In this document: piece by piece, positions 39,001 to 45,000 of the stretch
Numbering within the stretch: position 1 is the first letter of the stretch
Layout of the letters: each line of letters starts with the position of its first letter
Source: a virus
Taxonomy: Duplodnaviria > Heunggongvirae > Uroviricota > Caudoviricetes
DNA: 48,304 bases
Virus record (IMG/VR): IMGVR_UViG_2563366867_000009
Strand: one strand, 5' to 3'
Position numbers: made by a program

Positions 39001-42000
39001 AGCGTCTTGTTTGATTGATATTTACACAATATGGTTGTTTTATCCGGTTTCTTCCACCACCGCACCGGACAGGCGGCCATGCGGGAAAACGCTCACGTTA
39101 CCTGAAAACGTGGAAAGCCCGGTGTGCATCGTTTTTGATTATCCCCACACACTCGCGCAGGAGGTCCAGTGTCTGGCTGAGGTCTCTGTTAATGCGGGAA
39201 TACTGCGACGATACGGCGCATGGCTATGTCAGGCTGAAATGCCTTTATCAAATCCGGGTAACGCAATCTGCCCCTGCTGCTCCAGCCTGTCCAGCCTTGC
39301 CAGCAACTGAGGCTTCTTCACCCTGCCCCAGCGATTGAGCAAACGACCTGACATACTGGCGACATCTTTCTCTTTCATGTACTCCAGCATTACAGCGTTG
39401 CGCTCCGCCTCCAGATTCGCCAGACCTTGCTGAATAAGCTCAGCCATCCAGTTGAAAGCCTGAATGTACGCTTCCTTAAAGGTCATAGCAGCTTTCCCCG
39501 TAAAACCAAATACCAACATCGTCCAACCGTCTTTTGTCATTCGATATATGGGCTGGGGTTTACCGTTCTGTAACTCATTGTTTTCATAGCAAAGCGCAAA
39601 ATTGCGCTCTGCAAATTCTTTTGAGCATTGTTGAACAACGGCTCTTGTTTTCCGCAATACATCTTTGTGTTCTTTGCCAAATGCTACGGCAACCTTTCGG
39701 GTATCCGTCACCGGCTCGTTGCCTGTCACAAAAACAAGATCGCGGAAATCAATACCGTTAACAATCGTCGGATAGTTCATAGCGTCTTACCTTTCAGAAA
39801 ATTGAGCCTGTCTCACAGAAAAGCCGCCCCGAGATGGTCGCCACCATATACGGCAGTTCTCAGGCTCAACTTTCTGAAAGGCTCGGGGATGTGATATGCG
39901 CGTGAGATGCGCGATGAAATTCAGATATGAAAAAGCCAGCGATTAAGCTGGCTCTGTTAATTCAGGCACTGAGTGCGGATATATTCCTGTGCCCCTTCCA
40001 GCTGCTTCTGCATTGTCATCAACCGTTCTCTGAGGATGAAATAATCCCGTTCAGCGGTGTCTGCCAGTCGGGGGCCGGTTGCATTATCCATGCCGGAGGT
40101 GCCGGTGGCTTCACGCACGGTACCGGAGCAGGTGGCGTTGATCCGCAGGCGCTTACGACCAGCAGCAACATCAGCACGCAGAGTTTCATTTTCAGCTCTC
40201 GCATCGGCTAATTCCCTCGAGTATTTTGCATCGAGCGCAGCAACATCGCGCTGGCGCACCTGCATATCAGTAATGGTGGCGTTTGCCAGCTCCAGCTCTC
40301 TGGCTTTTTTATCGCGCTGCACTTTGTAGGTGATGGCGTTATCGCGGTAATGGTCTGTTGCCAGCCACAGCGCACCACAGCCACCCGCCAGGACAATAAT
40401 CACCACACACAGAACACGGCTCATCTCTCTTTCACCCCACCAGTCCCGATAACGTCAGGACTCGCCAGGCGGTGGAAAAGAAAATGGCAACCAGCATTAG
40501 TGAAAATGAAATGCCGACAATTACACAGAGGATCTTCGCCAGCGTTATGAGTTTGTCTGACATGCTTAATCCTCCCTTCACGATTTCAACGCAATGACCA
40601 GTTTTGCCAGCCCATACAGCATCGGGGACACAGCAACACCGACCGCCACCCACTTAATGGCAAAAGCCAGTGCTCTGCTGATGTCATCAGTTACAGGCGC
40701 TTTCAGTTCAAGGCCGTTTTTCATAGTCAACCTCAACAGAATTCGTTTATACTTTTCCATGTTCTCCCTTGCCTTATCCAAGGTCAGAAACACAAAACCC
40801 CGCTTGCAGCCAACAAACGGGGTTTTTACTTTTATTCACTTAGTTTTTGTCAGTTCGCAGGATTTCGTGTTATCCGTCCGTGTGAGCAAACCGCATTTTT
40901 CAGCAAAATATTCTGCTTATCTGTCAATTCCCCAGCACGCCAGCGCGCTCTCCTGGTCACGCCGCGATACCTGCCCGTAACAGTTATTTGAGCGATTCCG
41001 ACAGTCCCTGCCGCCGTCATATATCCATCGGCGGATTTCAGCACATGCACCTTTCCGGTCTCCGGCGTTCAGTTTCCGGTAAAACGTTGAGGTGAAGCAT
41101 TTCGAAGGCCCGATGTTGTACGGACAGAATGACGCGATGCCCGCTTTCTGCGGTTCAGTCAGTGGCAATTTGATGTTTTTCTCCACCCATGCCAGCGCCT
41201 TATCACGTTCAATGGCATTAACCTGAGCGCATTTTTCCTTCGACAACTTCATGCCCGGGACGACAGGTTTGCCATCCACCATGATGGCACCACGGCAGAT
41301 GGTCCAGATCCCCGCACCATCACGGTATGCCGTGGTGTGGTTACCTTCTTTTTCGTCAAGAAACTGGTCGAGGATTTCAGGCGCAGAAGCACCTGTGGCA
41401 ATCAGCGCCAGAACGGCTACCGATAAACCATAGTGGAGTTTCCTGCTCATCAGCTTACTCTCCCCGCGCAGCTTTGCGCCGGTCTTCTTTAATCTTGAAA
41501 TACAGATTCGTCAGGTATGTCAGGAACCCCAGACACAGGCTCCCCAAAACCCCGATAGCAGCCCACTGTGACGGAGTAACCTGATCCAACCACTGTAGAA
41601 ACCAGTAACCCGCACTGCCCGCAGAAGTACCATAGGCTATGCCCGTTGATATTTTTTCCATCTGATACATATCCCCGCCCCGACAGACCTGTGCTACCGG
41701 AAATAAAAAAGGCCATCAGTGTTTTACTGATGGCCCTGCCCCGCCGTTACAGCATTGTGCCCGGTTCGGGTTGTGTGTCTGTCATATCCGTCACCGGTGA
41801 CTCCGGCTGAATATCACCATTTTCCGTGGTGACATCTTCCGCCTGTGGTTCCGGAAGCAGTTCCGGAGATGGTTCCGGCTGTGCACCAAGCAATTCATCC
41901 AGAATTGAATCCACTTCTGCATCAAGACGCTCTTCCAGATTCTGGCGGAGTTTTTGTTTCAGGACGCTTCTGACTTCTTCAGAGCGAATGACTTCCTTCA

Positions 42001-45000
42001 CTGCCTCAGCAGTGACCAGTTGTTTTATATCTGTCATGAGATTTTCTCGTTGAAAGGGGTTATTAAGAAGGTTGTTCCGGAATGAGTGGGGCTTCTGTTT
42101 TTGCTCCGGCTGACTGAGTGGCGCTGATTTTCTCAGCGGCCCTTTTGTCAATCTGTCTGCGCCAGAAGTCGCGTACTGCCCTGTATCCACCCGAAAGCAG
42201 ATACAACACACAGACCACCGTACAGAAGTACAGCATTAACTGGTTGATGAATGTCATGGTTTATTACCGTTACTGTTGACAATGAGAACTGTTTTCATTT
42301 AGAAATGATTGATGTCGAAAGCATCCTTTCGTTAGATTCTCCATTGGGATTACCTCCGCCAGTCTCCATTCCTGTTGCTGGCGGTTTTTTTCGTCTGTTA
42401 TGCTGCTACGGCATTCACACCAACAGTAAGACTTTCAATCAGCACAGGGTAAGTTGCCGCATTTCCGGTAATATCCGTAATTGCCAGCGCGTTGGCCTCA
42501 AAGGCTGCATTCGTCCATCTGGTCAGCGTAAACGGTTTTCCTGCTGCATTATCAAGCACCGGCGTGACGTTCAGCGAGCCACCACCCGGGAAGCGGAAAG
42601 TCAGCGTGTGCCAGTCGTGATCGAACGGACCATAACTACCAAGCCGCTGTGATGTGGTGTTTGCATGATACATCACATTGATGTTTGTTTTATCAGTCTG
42701 CAGATAGAAGGCCGCAATATAACCCTCCTCTGATTCCGCTCCCGGCCATCCACTACCGCGCCAGTAAATACCCGCAGAATATTGATTTGCAGAAGCATTG
42801 AGAGATACATCATCGGGGATTTTAAAGCGCAGCGTGATTTCACCGCCGTTATCGAACAGCTCCTTCCCCTTACCGGCATCAATTGCGTGCGATACTTTCC
42901 AGGTCTTTTTCTGTGCAAGACCATTTTCTGGTTTTTCAAGACGAAGGGCTTTTTTACCTGAACCACTGTCACTGACCAGCGTGTTTTTGACATCTGTCAG
43001 CGTCCAGCCCTGCGAAGCCAGATCGGCATTTTCCGCATTCGCATCATAAGCCAGCACTGACTGTATCTTTGTCGGGACAACGGATTCAGGCTGAGTATCG
43101 CCACTCTCCTGTGCTGGTTGCGATACGCCTCCGCCTGAAGAAACCGCGGCTTTTGTCACTTTCCCGGAAACAAAATCTGCCACTCTGCCCACATGCAGAA
43201 GAATGGCTGTTGCCAGACGGTCGGAAATAATTCCGCGACGCGCCCATGAACCAAAGTGGGTTTTACGATCGGATGTTGTCCAGCTCTTCGCATCCGTTCG
43301 TCCACCGGAACCATAATACCCGATAGCCGGAATATCCGGGTCTTCTGACGGTTCATTGGTCCCGACTTTCTGACCATTGTCATCCATCATAAACGGCACA
43401 AAGAAGATATTTTTACCGGCTTTGGTTTTGTATGCGCCATAGACGGCATCGTATTGCGCTGAATACGTCTCCTTCCAGTAGTACGTCGTGTCACCACAAA
43501 TCCAGGGCACCAGAGAAGGAGAAGCACCAGCGCACTGACCGGATACTCCCGCCAGGTCAGAACGGTATTTTTCCACCATGGCATCAAACATGGCGGGCTG
43601 ACTGGCGTACGCTCCCTGTTTTAAATCAAACTCGCCCTGCATCCAGACAACACAAAGCAGTATGTTTTTGGGGTTTGCCTTCAGCGCGGCCTGAGTGCGT
43701 GTCAGCAGGTCTTTATACAACGGCTTATCAACGCCCCATCGTTCAGATTTATCCGACGCTCCTGAACTTTCACTGAACGTTCCGTCAGCACCGGCTGTAA
43801 ACGCAGAGCCACCACGACAGCACGGCACTAACAAAATACCCGCATTTTCCGGCATAAAGGGCAACAGCTTTTTGGCAATATGCAATCCCTGTCCGACACA
43901 CCCATACTGCTCTGCGCTGGCTTTCGGATGAGAAAAACGGCTCAAATCCTGCACATCATGCAGGCAGTGGTCCGCCGGAATGATGTCGTTATATGCACAG
44001 GCCGCACCACCCGGTGTCACCGTACTGCGACGCGCCAGCTGTTTAATACGCGGGTCCGGACGGTCATATGTCTCCGGCAGCGGCAGGCCTTCACCATACG
44101 CCATGCCGTTTGACTGTCCGGCCAGCGCAATGACAAAGTAATATTCTGGTTCAACAACAACAGTCCGGGTACCATCTCCCCCCGGTGAAACTACCGGAGA
44201 GGTCATATCCCCTTCAGCGACTATAGCCTGGATAAATTCAGCACCATAACCCGCGCTTGAGATAATCGGACTACCATAGGGTTGCCAGCCTTCCTTCAGT
44301 TTTTGCGTCAGTTTTCCTGCGAGGTCTGACGGCGATGATGCCCTGACCACGTCATAGTGTTTAAATGCCATGAATCCTCCCGGCCGGGATAGTGGGTTGA
44401 ATCAGATAAGGACTGACTGAAGTCTGAAAATACAAAAGACAACTGCCAGTAAAAACGAAAAGGCCGCGCAGTTGCGCAGTCTCATCACCATCGGGTATTA
44501 TTCACACGGTGAATAATCGAAACTCACTTTCTTTGTTTTATTCCTTGCCGCTCGCGCCTCCCGGCGCGGGCTTTTTTTGCATGTAAAAAGGCCCCTGCGA
44601 TGAGGGGCCTGAGAGTATTACCTGGTTTCAGTTAACTGCATAGTGCCGGGTGCCTCCCGGTGAGTTCAGCCCGGTGCCACCGAACCCGCGTCTTTCACAT
44701 TGCCTGTGACATTAAAAATGCCAGCCCGCACCAGCCGCCCCGCCGCTGAGGGGGATTCACCATGCGTTGCGATTTTTAACAAATTCTCCGTCAGTCAGAC
44801 AATCATCAACTTGCTGAATTGTGAGGTATTTAAAAATTTCCCCGATTAACTGATACCCTGCTAATCACCTGTTGTTTTCTTTTTCAGCAACAAAAAAGCC
44901 CGCTCATCGGCGGATTCGGCTGCGTGGCAATGTAACCATTCTTATCATGATATGAGGATTTTTACGATTGTAAAATGTTTTTTAACTGACACCAGAATCA

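Follow-up and report, generated by a model that had tools for sequence, protein, structure and literature searches.

An ordinary late gene block, encoding esterase and lysis functions, in a toxin-free relative of Shiga toxin phages

Introduction

The locus described here raises the question whether a late region that is arranged like that of Shiga toxin (Stx) phages, and that lacks stx, belongs to a toxin-negative relative of these phages or to one in which the cargo slot was exchanged. A sequence-only reading of the window (the whole stretch of viral DNA analysed, 48,304 nucleotides) had considered both, given that a restriction-modification (R-M) island precedes the esterase gene. Our analysis shows that the block at 39957-44371 is an ordinary late gene set (virion esterase and cell lysis) of a toxin-free relative of Stx phages; such a block is in itself mostly already known. 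More specifically, with a probability of approximately 0.88, it makes up the promoter-proximal portion of the late operon in an Escherichia coli prophage that is stx-negative and 933W-like (Sepvirinae-type, short-tailed lambdoid), with the R-M cassette in a separate slot. Neither Q nor the distal end of the cassette falls inside the window; how they are arranged here is inferred from loci with 99% identity over 39957-48304.

Results

The whole-prophage alignment to 933W that the sequence-only reading had proposed, with lack of synteny as the outcome that would speak against it, reveals extensive synteny: 933W is collinear with about 32 kb of the window (31.8 of 48.3 kb), as expected for the toxin-negative Stx phage relative that had been suggested. 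Every gene of the block is on the minus strand (Table 1), and the block ends are exact, with 44371 being the esterase start codon and 39957 the end of Rz. Pfam searches and 933W collinearity confirm the gene order esterase, small ORFs, pinholin, SAR endolysin and Rz/Rz1, the same as downstream of stx. The block matches 436 phage records, far beyond chance, the majority being Stx phages. The combination of esterase with this lysis cassette is no hallmark of Stx phages; in other temperate E. coli phages that are stx-negative, Q is followed by non-coding DNA and then by the esterase. ARAGORN detected no tRNA genes in the whole window, and tblastn and blastn searches of the window with Stx2, Stx1c and the 933W tRNA-stx segment gave chance-level matches only, in agreement with the earlier observation that no toxin or tRNA genes precede the esterase.

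A decaying, non-functional prophage remnant would account for the autotransporter cargo and IS fragments found where the window begins, and for the mosaic differences versus every sequenced relative. However, all late genes are intact, and the structural proteins are 95-97% identical to those of 933W (portal 97%, terminase large subunit 96%, major capsid protein 95%). Moreover, PhiR12_3 (GenBank PV340552) is 99.7% identical at the nucleotide level over 39957-44371, and its record presents a complete phage genome and names a propagation host, making decay very improbable.

Table 1. Features of the late region and its surroundings (positions in the window).
Feature	Position	Strand	Evidence
Rha/ORF11CD3 regulator gene	39229..39780	-	Pfam
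Rz, inner-membrane spanin subunit, 155 aa, N-terminal TMD	39957..40424	-	PF03245 4e-49, hydropathy
Rz1, outer-membrane lipoprotein spanin subunit	40019..40204	-	PF06085 1.7e-21
Small membrane ORF, 43 aa from Met31 of ORF 40432-40653	40432..40563	-	phrog_4906
Small ORF, up to 71 aa	40578..40793	-	phrog_1115 6.5e-47; C-terminal hydrophobic segment
GH24 lysozyme, 177 aa	40917..41450	-	PF00959 Phage_lysozyme 8e-25
Class II holin, phage-21 S family (pinholin type), 71 aa	41455..41670	-	PF04971 'Bacteriophage P21 holin S' 5e-35
DUF826 protein	41747..42037	-	Pfam 2.5e-24, residues 59-115 of 154-aa ORF 41747-42211
DUF1378 small membrane protein, 64 aa	42063..42257	-	Pfam 7e-36
NanS-p-type esterase, 657 aa	42398..44371	-	Pfam, PDB matches, motifs
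STnc100-family sRNA gene, terminator 44589-44610	44579..44795	-	Rfam RF02076, 150.6 bits vs gathering score 47
Empty stx slot, ~65 bp	44825..44889	.	Homology break-points
Hairpin + T-run, homologue of first terminator after 933W pR'	44890..44914	-	Sequence, 933W alignment
qut-identical sequence ACATTGCC	44926..44933	-	Alignment to annotated 933W qut; function inferred
933W late promoter pR' homologue	44947..44974	-	-35 TTTACA, 16-nt spacer, -10 TATCAT
R-M specificity (beta) subunit, two target-recognition domains	44982..46100	-	Pfam Methylase_S, 2 stretches; PADLOC Specificity_II
R-M alpha, fused PD-(D/E)XK-type nuclease + N6-adenine methyltransferase	46160..48211	-	PADLOC REase_MTase_IIG 757 bits; Pfam N6_Mtase
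Heptanucleotide repeat start, GACCAGC on coding strand, cut by window end	48212..48304	-	TRF 13.3 copies, 100% matches

The first late gene encodes a NanS-p-type protein with a DUF1737 capsid-binding domain (residues 3-53; Pfam 3.7e-17), a SASA/SGNH domain (residues ~71-391; Pfam SASA 1.4e-9) and a C-terminal jelly-roll DUF6645 domain (residues 437-653; Pfam 5.8e-27). The catalytic residues, Ser87 in a GQSN motif and His372 in RKTHF, align with those of solved structures, and the PDB matches are NanS (3pt5; 3e-118) and the NanS-p C-terminal domain (6yp6; 1e-43). Identity to the 933W allele is 58.6%, and the alleles in 347 of the 351 matching phage records are likewise less than 60% identical to the window esterase. 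The NanS-p homologue gp84 of phi24B decorates the capsid via DUF1737 (bioRxiv 10.64898/2026.04.10.717836), and by homology the DUF1737 domain described here would dock on capsid hexons, while the SASA domain would take 9-O-acetyl groups off sialic acids. Given that the protein is less than 60% identical to every tested NanS-p (44-48% for the C-terminal domain), its substrate and virion association are extrapolated. Expression of nanS-p goes up upon induction (PMC10462455).

Downstream of the esterase, the DUF1378 protein is 86% identical to its 933W counterpart and has an N-terminal hydrophobic segment. The DUF826 product likely comprises 96 residues, starting at Met59 of the longer ORF; in PhiR12_3, the gene is annotated as 291 bp. 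For the lysis genes, the proposed phage-21 type holds with respect to both family and mechanism class, based on Pfam, hydropathy and alignment to the phage 21 lysozyme (PDB 3HDE; 35% identity, 4.9e-19). Stx-phage holins are P21-family pinholins (PMC10462455), and the holin, 82% identical to 933W S, has dual starts (Met1/Met4); TMD2 alone is strongly hydrophobic, with TMD1 (residues ~7-28) being Gly/Ala/Ser-rich and below threshold. The lysozyme (90% identical to that of 933W) has an SAR-like N-terminal segment (residues 5-27) with moderate hydropathy and 47-59% Gly/Ala/Ser/Thr, and its catalytic residues Glu35, Asp44 and Thr50 (E-x8-D-x5-T) align with those of the phage 21 enzyme. Rz1 is nested within Rz in a different frame and has a VSAC lipobox with Cys20; identities to the 933W proteins are 91.5% for Rz and 96.7% for Rz1. 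Lysis would follow the phage-21 route, in which the pinholin depolarises the membrane, the membrane-tethered SAR lysozyme is freed and activated by this depolarisation, and the Rz/Rz1 spanin finally disrupts the outer membrane.

The sequence-only reading did not include two small membrane ORFs that separate the lysozyme gene from Rz. The one at 40578-40793 stands at the 933W ant position and has no match in 933W. The other, at 40432-40563, is 83% identical to untranslated 933W sequence immediately upstream of Rz; PhiR12_3 and the SCU-104 prophage (99.4% identical in this region) both have it as an annotated gene of 132 bp.

Between the esterase and the R-M pair are 610 bp of conserved regulatory DNA. 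As previously noted, an R-M island precedes the esterase, and no other protein-coding gene is closer on the upstream side, but the two do not adjoin, since a pR' homologue intervenes. Directly after the specificity-subunit stop codon, 100 bp of non-coding DNA (44890-44989) are 88% identical to 933W 20651-20750, annotated as pR', qut and first terminator. The pR' homologue is the best sigma-70 match within 44300-48304 (10/12). After induction, the Q antiterminator would act on RNA polymerase at the pR'/qut homologue (44926-44974), and transcription would pass the hairpin terminators at 44899-44914, 44589-44610 and 44464-44479. Q in near-identical loci is 70% identical to 933W Q, so that its recognition of the qut present here is an assumption.

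Lambdoid phages normally have pR' right next to Q. The pR' homologue could be a relic, with the late promoter located beside Q and Q-modified polymerase reading through hok, the repeat and the R-M genes into the esterase, which would place the R-M genes in the late transcript. A strong promoter-like site (TTGAAA, 16-nt spacer, TAGAAT) does overlap the Q stop codon in PhiR12_3. However, that site is directly upstream of a match to the hok/sok RNA family (RF01794), which fits a hok mRNA promoter. In addition, the downstream module keeps its -35, -10 and qut at 88% identity to 933W despite being non-coding, and stays directly upstream of stx1c or tRNAs in relatives. We consider a relic unlikely and regard the homologue as the probable late promoter.

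The position occupied by tRNA genes and stxAB in Stx phages is empty here. The slot measures ~65 bp, versus ~2 kb in 933W (StxS 3' part, tRNA genes and stx2AB) and 1.7 kb with stx1c in the E. coli 2013C-3033 prophage, and contains no leftover stx, tRNA or StxS homology. Homology to 933W picks up again 46 bp past stxB, and the STnc100 gene is at the same place in 933W (downstream of stxB), 2013C-3033 and PhiR12_3; this sRNA family has been linked to esterase genes (bioRxiv 10.64898/2026.05.13.724894).

Both slot flanks (pR' with the first terminator, and the post-stxB region with STnc100) are present, and the break-points coincide with those around stx2a in 933W and stx1c in 2013C-3033, as might result from recent deletion of tRNA-stx from an Stx phage via recombination between the flanks. 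Such a direct derivation is quite unlikely, since neither stx nor tRNA remnants are present, the post-stx flank is just 70-78% identical to any Stx phage, and the esterase is less than 60% identical to all Stx-phage alleles. Furthermore, the stx-negative phages PhiR5_1 and PhiR12_1/2/4/5 show unbroken homology, at roughly 70% identity, over the empty junction, which points to an old, established toxin-free configuration.

The R-M genes have the same orientation as the esterase, and 933W-type cargo is absent. It could thus be argued that the island replaced tRNA/stx and is now late-operon cargo, transcribed from pR' like stx. For this, the pR'/qut/terminator homologue is on the wrong side, being downstream of the R-M genes and before the esterase. 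In 2013C-3033, the island (99% identical) is upstream of the same pR' module and stx1c is downstream, demonstrating that the R-M and stx slots are separate and already contradicting an exchange; the same island coexists with three tRNA genes in E2855, which has no stx, and in O111:H8 strains. The proposed takeover of the stx/tRNA slot is therefore extremely doubtful. Instead, the R-M genes would be part of a separate mobile cassette (hok/sok, heptanucleotide repeat, R-M alpha and specificity subunit), which in relatives is wedged between the Q 3' end and pR' and probably lies outside the Q-dependent late transcript.

PADLOC assigns 46160-48121 to a Type IIG REase-MTase, the R-M alpha gene. Upstream of the TTG at 48121, the frame is open through a conserved N-terminal segment into the repeat, and the extended protein, with DFATGSAG and NPPY motifs, has homologues that are 72-73% identical over 100% of its length. 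In related loci, (GACCAGC)n begins three codons past the native ATG, specifying (DQRPATS)n near the 5' end of the gene. Copy numbers range from 31 to 120 over 16 related loci, with all three reading frames represented, a spread that suggests phase-variable R-M alpha expression. This repeat inside a fused nuclease-methylase gene is a side observation that may be new. The specificity gene has a 24-bp repeat (45619-45685, encoding AAHIEELE) in its central region, with two full units in the window, SCU-104 and strain 48, and one in PhiR12_3, E2855 and 2013C-3033.

At the 933W bor position, the Rha gene is inside a 735-bp insert (39222-39956) that is absent from PhiR12_3, PhiR5_2, SCU-104, 933W and all complete genomes searched. 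The prophage is therefore not simply PhiR12_3.

Discussion

PhiR12_3 comes from the temperate-phage panel of Brenes and Laub 2025 (cited in PMC13190303). Over 39957-48304 it has 99.4% nucleotide identity, with the same esterase allele and lysis genes, an equally empty stx slot, and the same pR' module and R-M island; most of its genes are annotated just as hypothetical. It differs in lacking the Rha insert, in a small terminase subunit that is only 80% identical, and in having one 24-bp unit fewer in the specificity gene. The 2013C-3033 Stx1c prophage (NZ_CP027323) has an identical architecture of Q, hok, repeat, R-M alpha, specificity subunit and pR' module, and is 99% identical over 44890-48304, whereas stx1c fills the slot that is empty here and the esterase and lysis genes have only ~72-80% nucleotide identity. 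Traversvirus tv86-type stx-negative phages (vB_EcoP_phi296/315/367, TL-2011a and PPwrbA prophages) are likewise toxin-free, with Q, pR', a NanS esterase and a same-family holin, but they retain a methyltransferase remnant and three tRNA genes, lack the R-M island and have Q abutting pR'.

With 933W and other Stx2a/Stx1a phages (Sepvirinae, Traversvirus), the shared order comprises pR', esterase, DUF1378/DUF826, S, R and Rz/Rz1, and continues through terminase, portal, capsid and tail genes, the structural genes having 88-90% nucleotide identity. The stxAB, tRNA genes, StxS 3' part, AsxR, ant and bor of 933W-type phages are all missing here, and, unlike in 933W, relatives have the hok/R-M cassette standing between Q and pR'.

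The likeness to phage 21 extends to a holin of the Pfam 'P21 holin S' family, an R21-homologous lysozyme with Glu35/Asp44/Thr50 at equal positions and a weakly hydrophobic N-terminus, and an embedded spanin pair. By contrast, the lysozyme and R21 share only 35% identity, the two small membrane ORFs between R and Rz are extra, and the longer holin product lacks the additional lysine that marks the phage 21 antiholin.

The R-M genes resemble BcgI-like Type IIB/IIG systems in combining a fused nuclease-methylase with a separate two-domain specificity subunit. Unlike Cj0031-type systems, they are prophage-borne in E. coli, their switching is predicted from sequence, and the repeated unit is seven nucleotides long, with 31-120 copies, giving up to ~280 (DQRPATS)n residues if in frame. 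As in repeat-driven phase-variable R-M genes such as Cj0031 of Campylobacter jejuni (PMC4889913), a simple-sequence repeat is located just past the start codon, inside the coding region, and its copy number differs among close relatives.

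The late block is that of a toxin-free 933W-like prophage

Profile searches bore out the gene order that had been read from the sequence alone (esterase, small ORFs, pinholin, SAR endolysin, Rz/Rz1), and the limits of the block are exact: the esterase starts at 44371, Rz ends at 39957, and all genes lie on the minus strand. Specific NCBIfam names were not obtained for the esterase, the holin, or the small ORFs. Between the lysozyme and Rz are 2 small membrane ORFs (PHROG 1115 and 4906) that the sequence-only reading did not mention.

Features of the late block and the adjoining small RNA (window coordinates)
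Feature	Position	Strand	Basis
657-aa esterase, DUF1737 + SASA + DUF6645	42398-44371	-	profile searches
DUF1378 protein	42063-42257	-	profile search
DUF826 protein	within 41747-42211	-	profile search
71-aa "phage P21 holin S"	41455-41670	-	profile search
177-aa phage lysozyme	40917-41450	-	profile search
Small hydrophobic ORF, PHROG 1115	40578-40793	-	profile search
Small hydrophobic ORF, PHROG 4906	40432-40653	-	profile search
Rz	39957-40424	-	Pfam
Rz1, embedded in Rz	40019-40204	-	Pfam
STnc100 sRNA, full length, between pR' and esterase	44579-44795	-	150.6 bits

The esterase and lysis genes make up an unremarkable late region from a 933W-like prophage that lacks the toxin, one whose sequence was in essence already available. 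Across its 4.4 kb, the block shares 99.7% identity with the stx-negative Escherichia phage PhiR12_3 (PV340552) and 98% with PhiR5_2, and over the longer stretch 39957-48304, a prophage of SCU-104, a human commensal strain, is 99.4% identical. Stx phages, at approximately 80% identity, account for most of the 436 phage records that the block matches. The idea that the backbone is a toxin-negative relative of Stx phages had been tied to synteny with these phages, and synteny is extensive: the window is collinear with 933W, an Stx2a phage, across 31.8 of its 48.3 kb. The late region is collinear, and the terminase, portal, capsid, and tail genes are homologous, as expected of a 933W-like Sepvirinae backbone. 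Protein identities to 933W are 97% for the portal, 96% for the large terminase, 95% for the capsid, 91.5% for Rz, 90% for the lysozyme, 82% for the holin, and 58.6% for the esterase. An esterase followed by a phage-21-type lysis block is backbone common to toxin-carrying and toxin-free lambdoid E. coli phages; its presence is no sign of a former or potential toxin carrier, and the value of this finding is mainly corrective.

The window differs from 933W between R and Rz, where 933W has ant and the window has small ORF sequence (40432-40793); the second of the small membrane ORFs has an 83% match in un-annotated 933W sequence directly upstream of Rz. In place of bor, the window carries a 735-bp insert (39222-39956) between Rz and the small terminase subunit, with a gene for a Rha/ORF11CD3 regulator. 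This insert is missing from PhiR12_3, SCU-104, and PhiR5_2, and E. coli strain 48 has a Rha gene at the same position. None of the complete E. coli genomes in the collection contains an exact copy of the window together with its Rha insert; coverage reaches 93% at best. The tail-fibre region is also partly different from that of 933W. Genes or fragments of YadA-like trimeric autotransporters are found at 25330-26841 (minus strand) and 5231-5839 (minus strand), the former within the tail-fibre region 24634-28355, a region that lacks a 933W counterpart. Outside the 933W homology and adjoining IS fragments (5901-6991), a gene at 274-4335 (minus strand) encodes a 1353-aa serine-protease autotransporter of the SPATE type (Peptidase_S6 plus beta-barrel), possible virulence-type cargo situated either at the end of the prophage or in the DNA flanking it.

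The stx slot is empty and the R-M island occupies a different slot

The sequence-only reading had noted R-M genes, rather than toxin or tRNA genes, ahead of the esterase, and this is what we find. ARAGORN detected no tRNA genes in the whole window, and tblastn and blastn searches with Stx1c, Stx2a, their flanks, and the 933W DNA from pR' to stxB gave nothing above chance. Upstream of the esterase, the first coding genes reached are an R-M pair: a nuclease fused to a methyltransferase (PADLOC Type IIG, 757 bits) and a specificity subunit with 2 domains. As an Stx-converting phage is defined by stxA and stxB downstream of pR', the window is filed as a relative only.

A homologue of the late promoter is present. 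By blastn, the segment 44989-44890 (minus strand) has 88% identity to 933W DNA spanning the end of Q and the annotated pR', qut, and first terminator, and the match sets in right at the specificity-subunit stop codon. The promoter homologue at 44974-44947 (TTTACA, 16-nt spacer, TATCAT) is the top sigma-70 match in 44300-48304. Homology to 933W restarts at 44824, which corresponds to 46 bp past stxB2, and runs to the esterase, so that the stx slot (44825-44889) measures approximately 65 bp in the window; in 933W, tRNA genes and stx2AB fill approximately 2 kb there. The STnc100 sRNA sits where it does downstream of stxB in 933W; a preprint on this sRNA family notes its association with esterase genes (bioRxiv 10.64898/2026.05.13.724894). 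A search for two neighbours of stx in 933W, AsxR and the StxS 3' part, showed that the window has neither.

The empty slot could be read as a recent deletion of stx from an Stx phage. This is argued against by the post-stx flank, which is only 70-78% identical to all Stx phages, and by the same empty junction being present in other toxin-free phages; an old loss is a further option. The junction at 44825-44889, which separates the STnc100 region from the first terminator downstream of pR', offers a useful marker for the entry and exit of stx modules.

The proposal that the R-M island had been exchanged for the toxin cargo is not supported. The pR' module lies between the R-M genes and the esterase, and in the Stx1c prophage of 2013C-3033 (NZ_CP027323), a 99% identical island and pR' module stand ahead of stx1c and an esterase, in that order, showing that island and stx are separate slots. 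The island did not replace stx: it is located between Q and pR', while stx, if present, is downstream of pR'. PhiR12_3 and SCU-104 share one arrangement: Q, hok/sok, repeat, R-M alpha subunit, R-M specificity subunit, pR' module, and esterase. The Q of loci of this type is 70% identical to that of 933W, and a promoter-like site at the end of Q lies directly upstream of the hok/sok RNA family match. E2855, 2013C-3250, and three O111:H8 strains have the island and pR' module followed by a methyltransferase remnant and 3 tRNA genes, without stx, and other toxin-free phages go straight from Q into non-coding DNA and then the esterase. Another lambdoid prophage has a more distantly related version of the hok/repeat/R-M cassette close to a different Q. 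In 2 near-identical relative loci (L001, 20996-21776, and L004, 13479-14259), a cassette of 4.5-5.2 kb splits Q from the 933W-type late promoter.

We found no description of this Q/pR' cargo position of the cassette in the literature searched. Defence genes occupy a second slot, upstream of pR', in a cassette shared with an Stx1c phage. We propose that this position, which would be outside the late transcript, lets the cassette ride in toxin-carrying and toxin-free Stx-like phages alike.

A divergent NanS-p-type esterase and a predicted pinholin lysis cassette

The esterase has the three-domain architecture of NanS-p proteins (DUF1737, SASA/SGNH esterase, and a C-terminal carbohydrate-binding jelly roll; Pfam), and its gene is located between the late promoter/stx region and the S holin gene, as expected of a lambdoid NanS-p. 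In the PDB, the central domain matches chromosomal NanS (3pt5, 3e-118) and the C-terminus matches the NanS-p jelly roll (6yp6, 1e-43). The catalytic motifs are kept, GQSN at 85-88 and block-V RKTHF at 369-373, and both align with the corresponding NanS residues, although block V reads RKTH as opposed to the RSSH, RASH, and RPTH variants listed in PMC10462455. The allele is divergent, with less than 60% identity to the esterase in 347 of 351 matching phage records; relative to 933W, identity is 78% for DUF1737, 72% for SASA, and 44% for the C-terminal domain. By homology (58.6% to the 933W allele), the protein would be expected to deacetylate Neu5,9Ac2 and to decorate the capsid like phi24B gp84. 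The latter is a capsid-decorating homologue that binds hexons via DUF1737 according to a cryo-EM preprint (bioRxiv 10.64898/2026.04.10.717836), and decoration of this kind would explain why toxin-free relatives keep the esterase gene as part of the phage backbone. Expression of nanS-p goes up on induction (PMC10462455).

The lysis proteins were compared with phage 21 by means of Pfam PF04971 and, in the PDB, structures of R21. The holin scores 119.7 bits against PF04971 (cut-off 26), and Stx-phage holins are pinholins of the P21 family (PMC10462455). In silico, its first transmembrane domain (TMD; residues 7-28) is rich in Gly/Ala/Ser/Thr and falls below the hydropathy threshold, which is passed by residues ~34-60 alone; a weakly hydrophobic first TMD and a stable second anchor are what is expected of a pinholin. 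Pinholins of this family pair a dual-start motif with an antiholin bearing one more positive charge at its N-terminus; the N-terminus here, MYQMEK, has Met1 and Met4 with no Lys or Arg between them. The lysozyme belongs to GH24 and shares 35% identity with R21, the SAR endolysin of phage 21 (PDB 3HDE; 4.9e-19), with the Glu-x8-Asp-x5-Thr triad (Glu35, Asp44, and Thr50) aligned. Its residues 5-27 have a hydropathy of 1.1-1.8 and 47-59% Gly/Ala/Ser/Thr, versus 2.6 and 29% for the Rz anchor, and a Pro comes after the ASA motif. The N-terminus is thus moderately hydrophobic and rich in small residues, like a SAR segment, from which membrane release is predicted. Rz has an N-terminal TMD, and Rz1, with lipobox VSAC, is wholly inside Rz in another frame, as in two-component embedded spanins. 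Collectively, these features fit a pinholin, SAR endolysin, and spanin route of lysis, which would be the likely mechanism.

The R-M gene of the island is probably phase-variable

The two by-products of the analysis, the Q/pR' cargo position and a probable phase-variable R-M gene, both lie outside 39957-44371. The R-M alpha subunit combines a nuclease and a gamma-class N6-adenine methyltransferase on one polypeptide (full-length PADLOC match to REase_MTase_IIG; motifs DFATGSAG, NPPY, and a D...EYK nuclease), and the separate specificity subunit has 2 target-recognition domains (Pfam Methylase_S in 2 stretches; PADLOC Specificity_II). These features suggest a BcgI-like Type IIB/IIG enzyme, which would be predicted to cut on both sides of a bipartite site. 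A PDB sequence search with the alpha subunit returned zero matches.

The annotated TTG start of the alpha gene (48121) is unlikely to be the true one, since it drops a segment conserved across genera and has no ribosome-binding site. The frame is open for 31 codons upstream and then enters the repeat. Homologues from Neisseria, Providencia, and others are 72-73% identical over the whole extended protein and start 5-15 residues ahead of the conserved motif S[IV]EPxIADLANGWLKSYxLDYKLEQ, and repeat-free E. coli forms begin MLPDQRPAT(N)KSRK.

At its end, the window runs into a perfect tract of a 7-bp unit (48212-48304), which reads GACCAGC on the strand coding for the R-M genes; the tract is cut at 48304 and continues beyond. 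The same repeat is seen in the L001 (20232-20812) and L004 (12841-13295) loci. Sixteen related loci have an ATG served by a good Shine-Dalgarno sequence, then CTGCCA, (GACCAGC)n, and the conserved N-terminus, placing the repeat 3 codons past the native ATG. Copy number ranges from 31 to 120, with 3, 6, and 7 loci in frame classes 0, 1, and 2; of these, only frame 0 puts the enzyme in frame with the native ATG, giving a 966-aa product in strain 48. Close relatives differ: the sister strains G6/7, G8, and G1/2 have 83, 99, and 91 copies, UCPROB-001 and UCPROB-002 have 76 and 83, and the three O111:H8 strains have 56, 83, and 58, all counts being taken from assemblies, in which long repeats may contain errors. 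A tract that lies within the coding frame after the native start codon, and whose copy number shifts the frame between close relatives, is the signature of simple-sequence-repeat (SSR) phase variation, and the alpha gene is probably phase-variable. The ORFs annotated across the repeat on the plus strand ("YXWGXW repeat-containing protein", "EmrB/QacA") appear to be artefacts, as they consist of repeat only and change length with the tract.

The specificity gene has its own 24-bp tandem repeat in the central region (45619-45685), encoding AAHIEELE, at which PGAP splits the gene. There are 2 full units in the window, SCU-104, and strain 48, and 1 in PhiR12_3, E2855, and 2013C-3033. The Type I HsdS subunits of EcoR124I/II carry a repeat that affects the length of the recognition-site spacer, and by analogy, the number of AAHIEELE units could alter spacer length here.

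We give slightly less than even odds (roughly 0.45) to the full reading, in which a BcgI-like R-M system is switched by slippage of the unusually long (GACCAGC)31-120 tract and carried by a cassette in a previously undescribed Q-pR' position, outside the late transcript. If true, lysogens would be mixed populations differing in restriction and methylation state. Within the collection searched, full-text queries on the repeat, on the peptide it encodes, and on E. coli R-M systems with heptanucleotide repeats yielded nothing relevant. SSR phase variation is known for R-M genes of other genera (e.g., PMC4889913); if the switching is real, it would be an unusual case in E. coli and would give probiotic, commensal, and EHEC strains an epigenetic and defence switch carried by a prophage.
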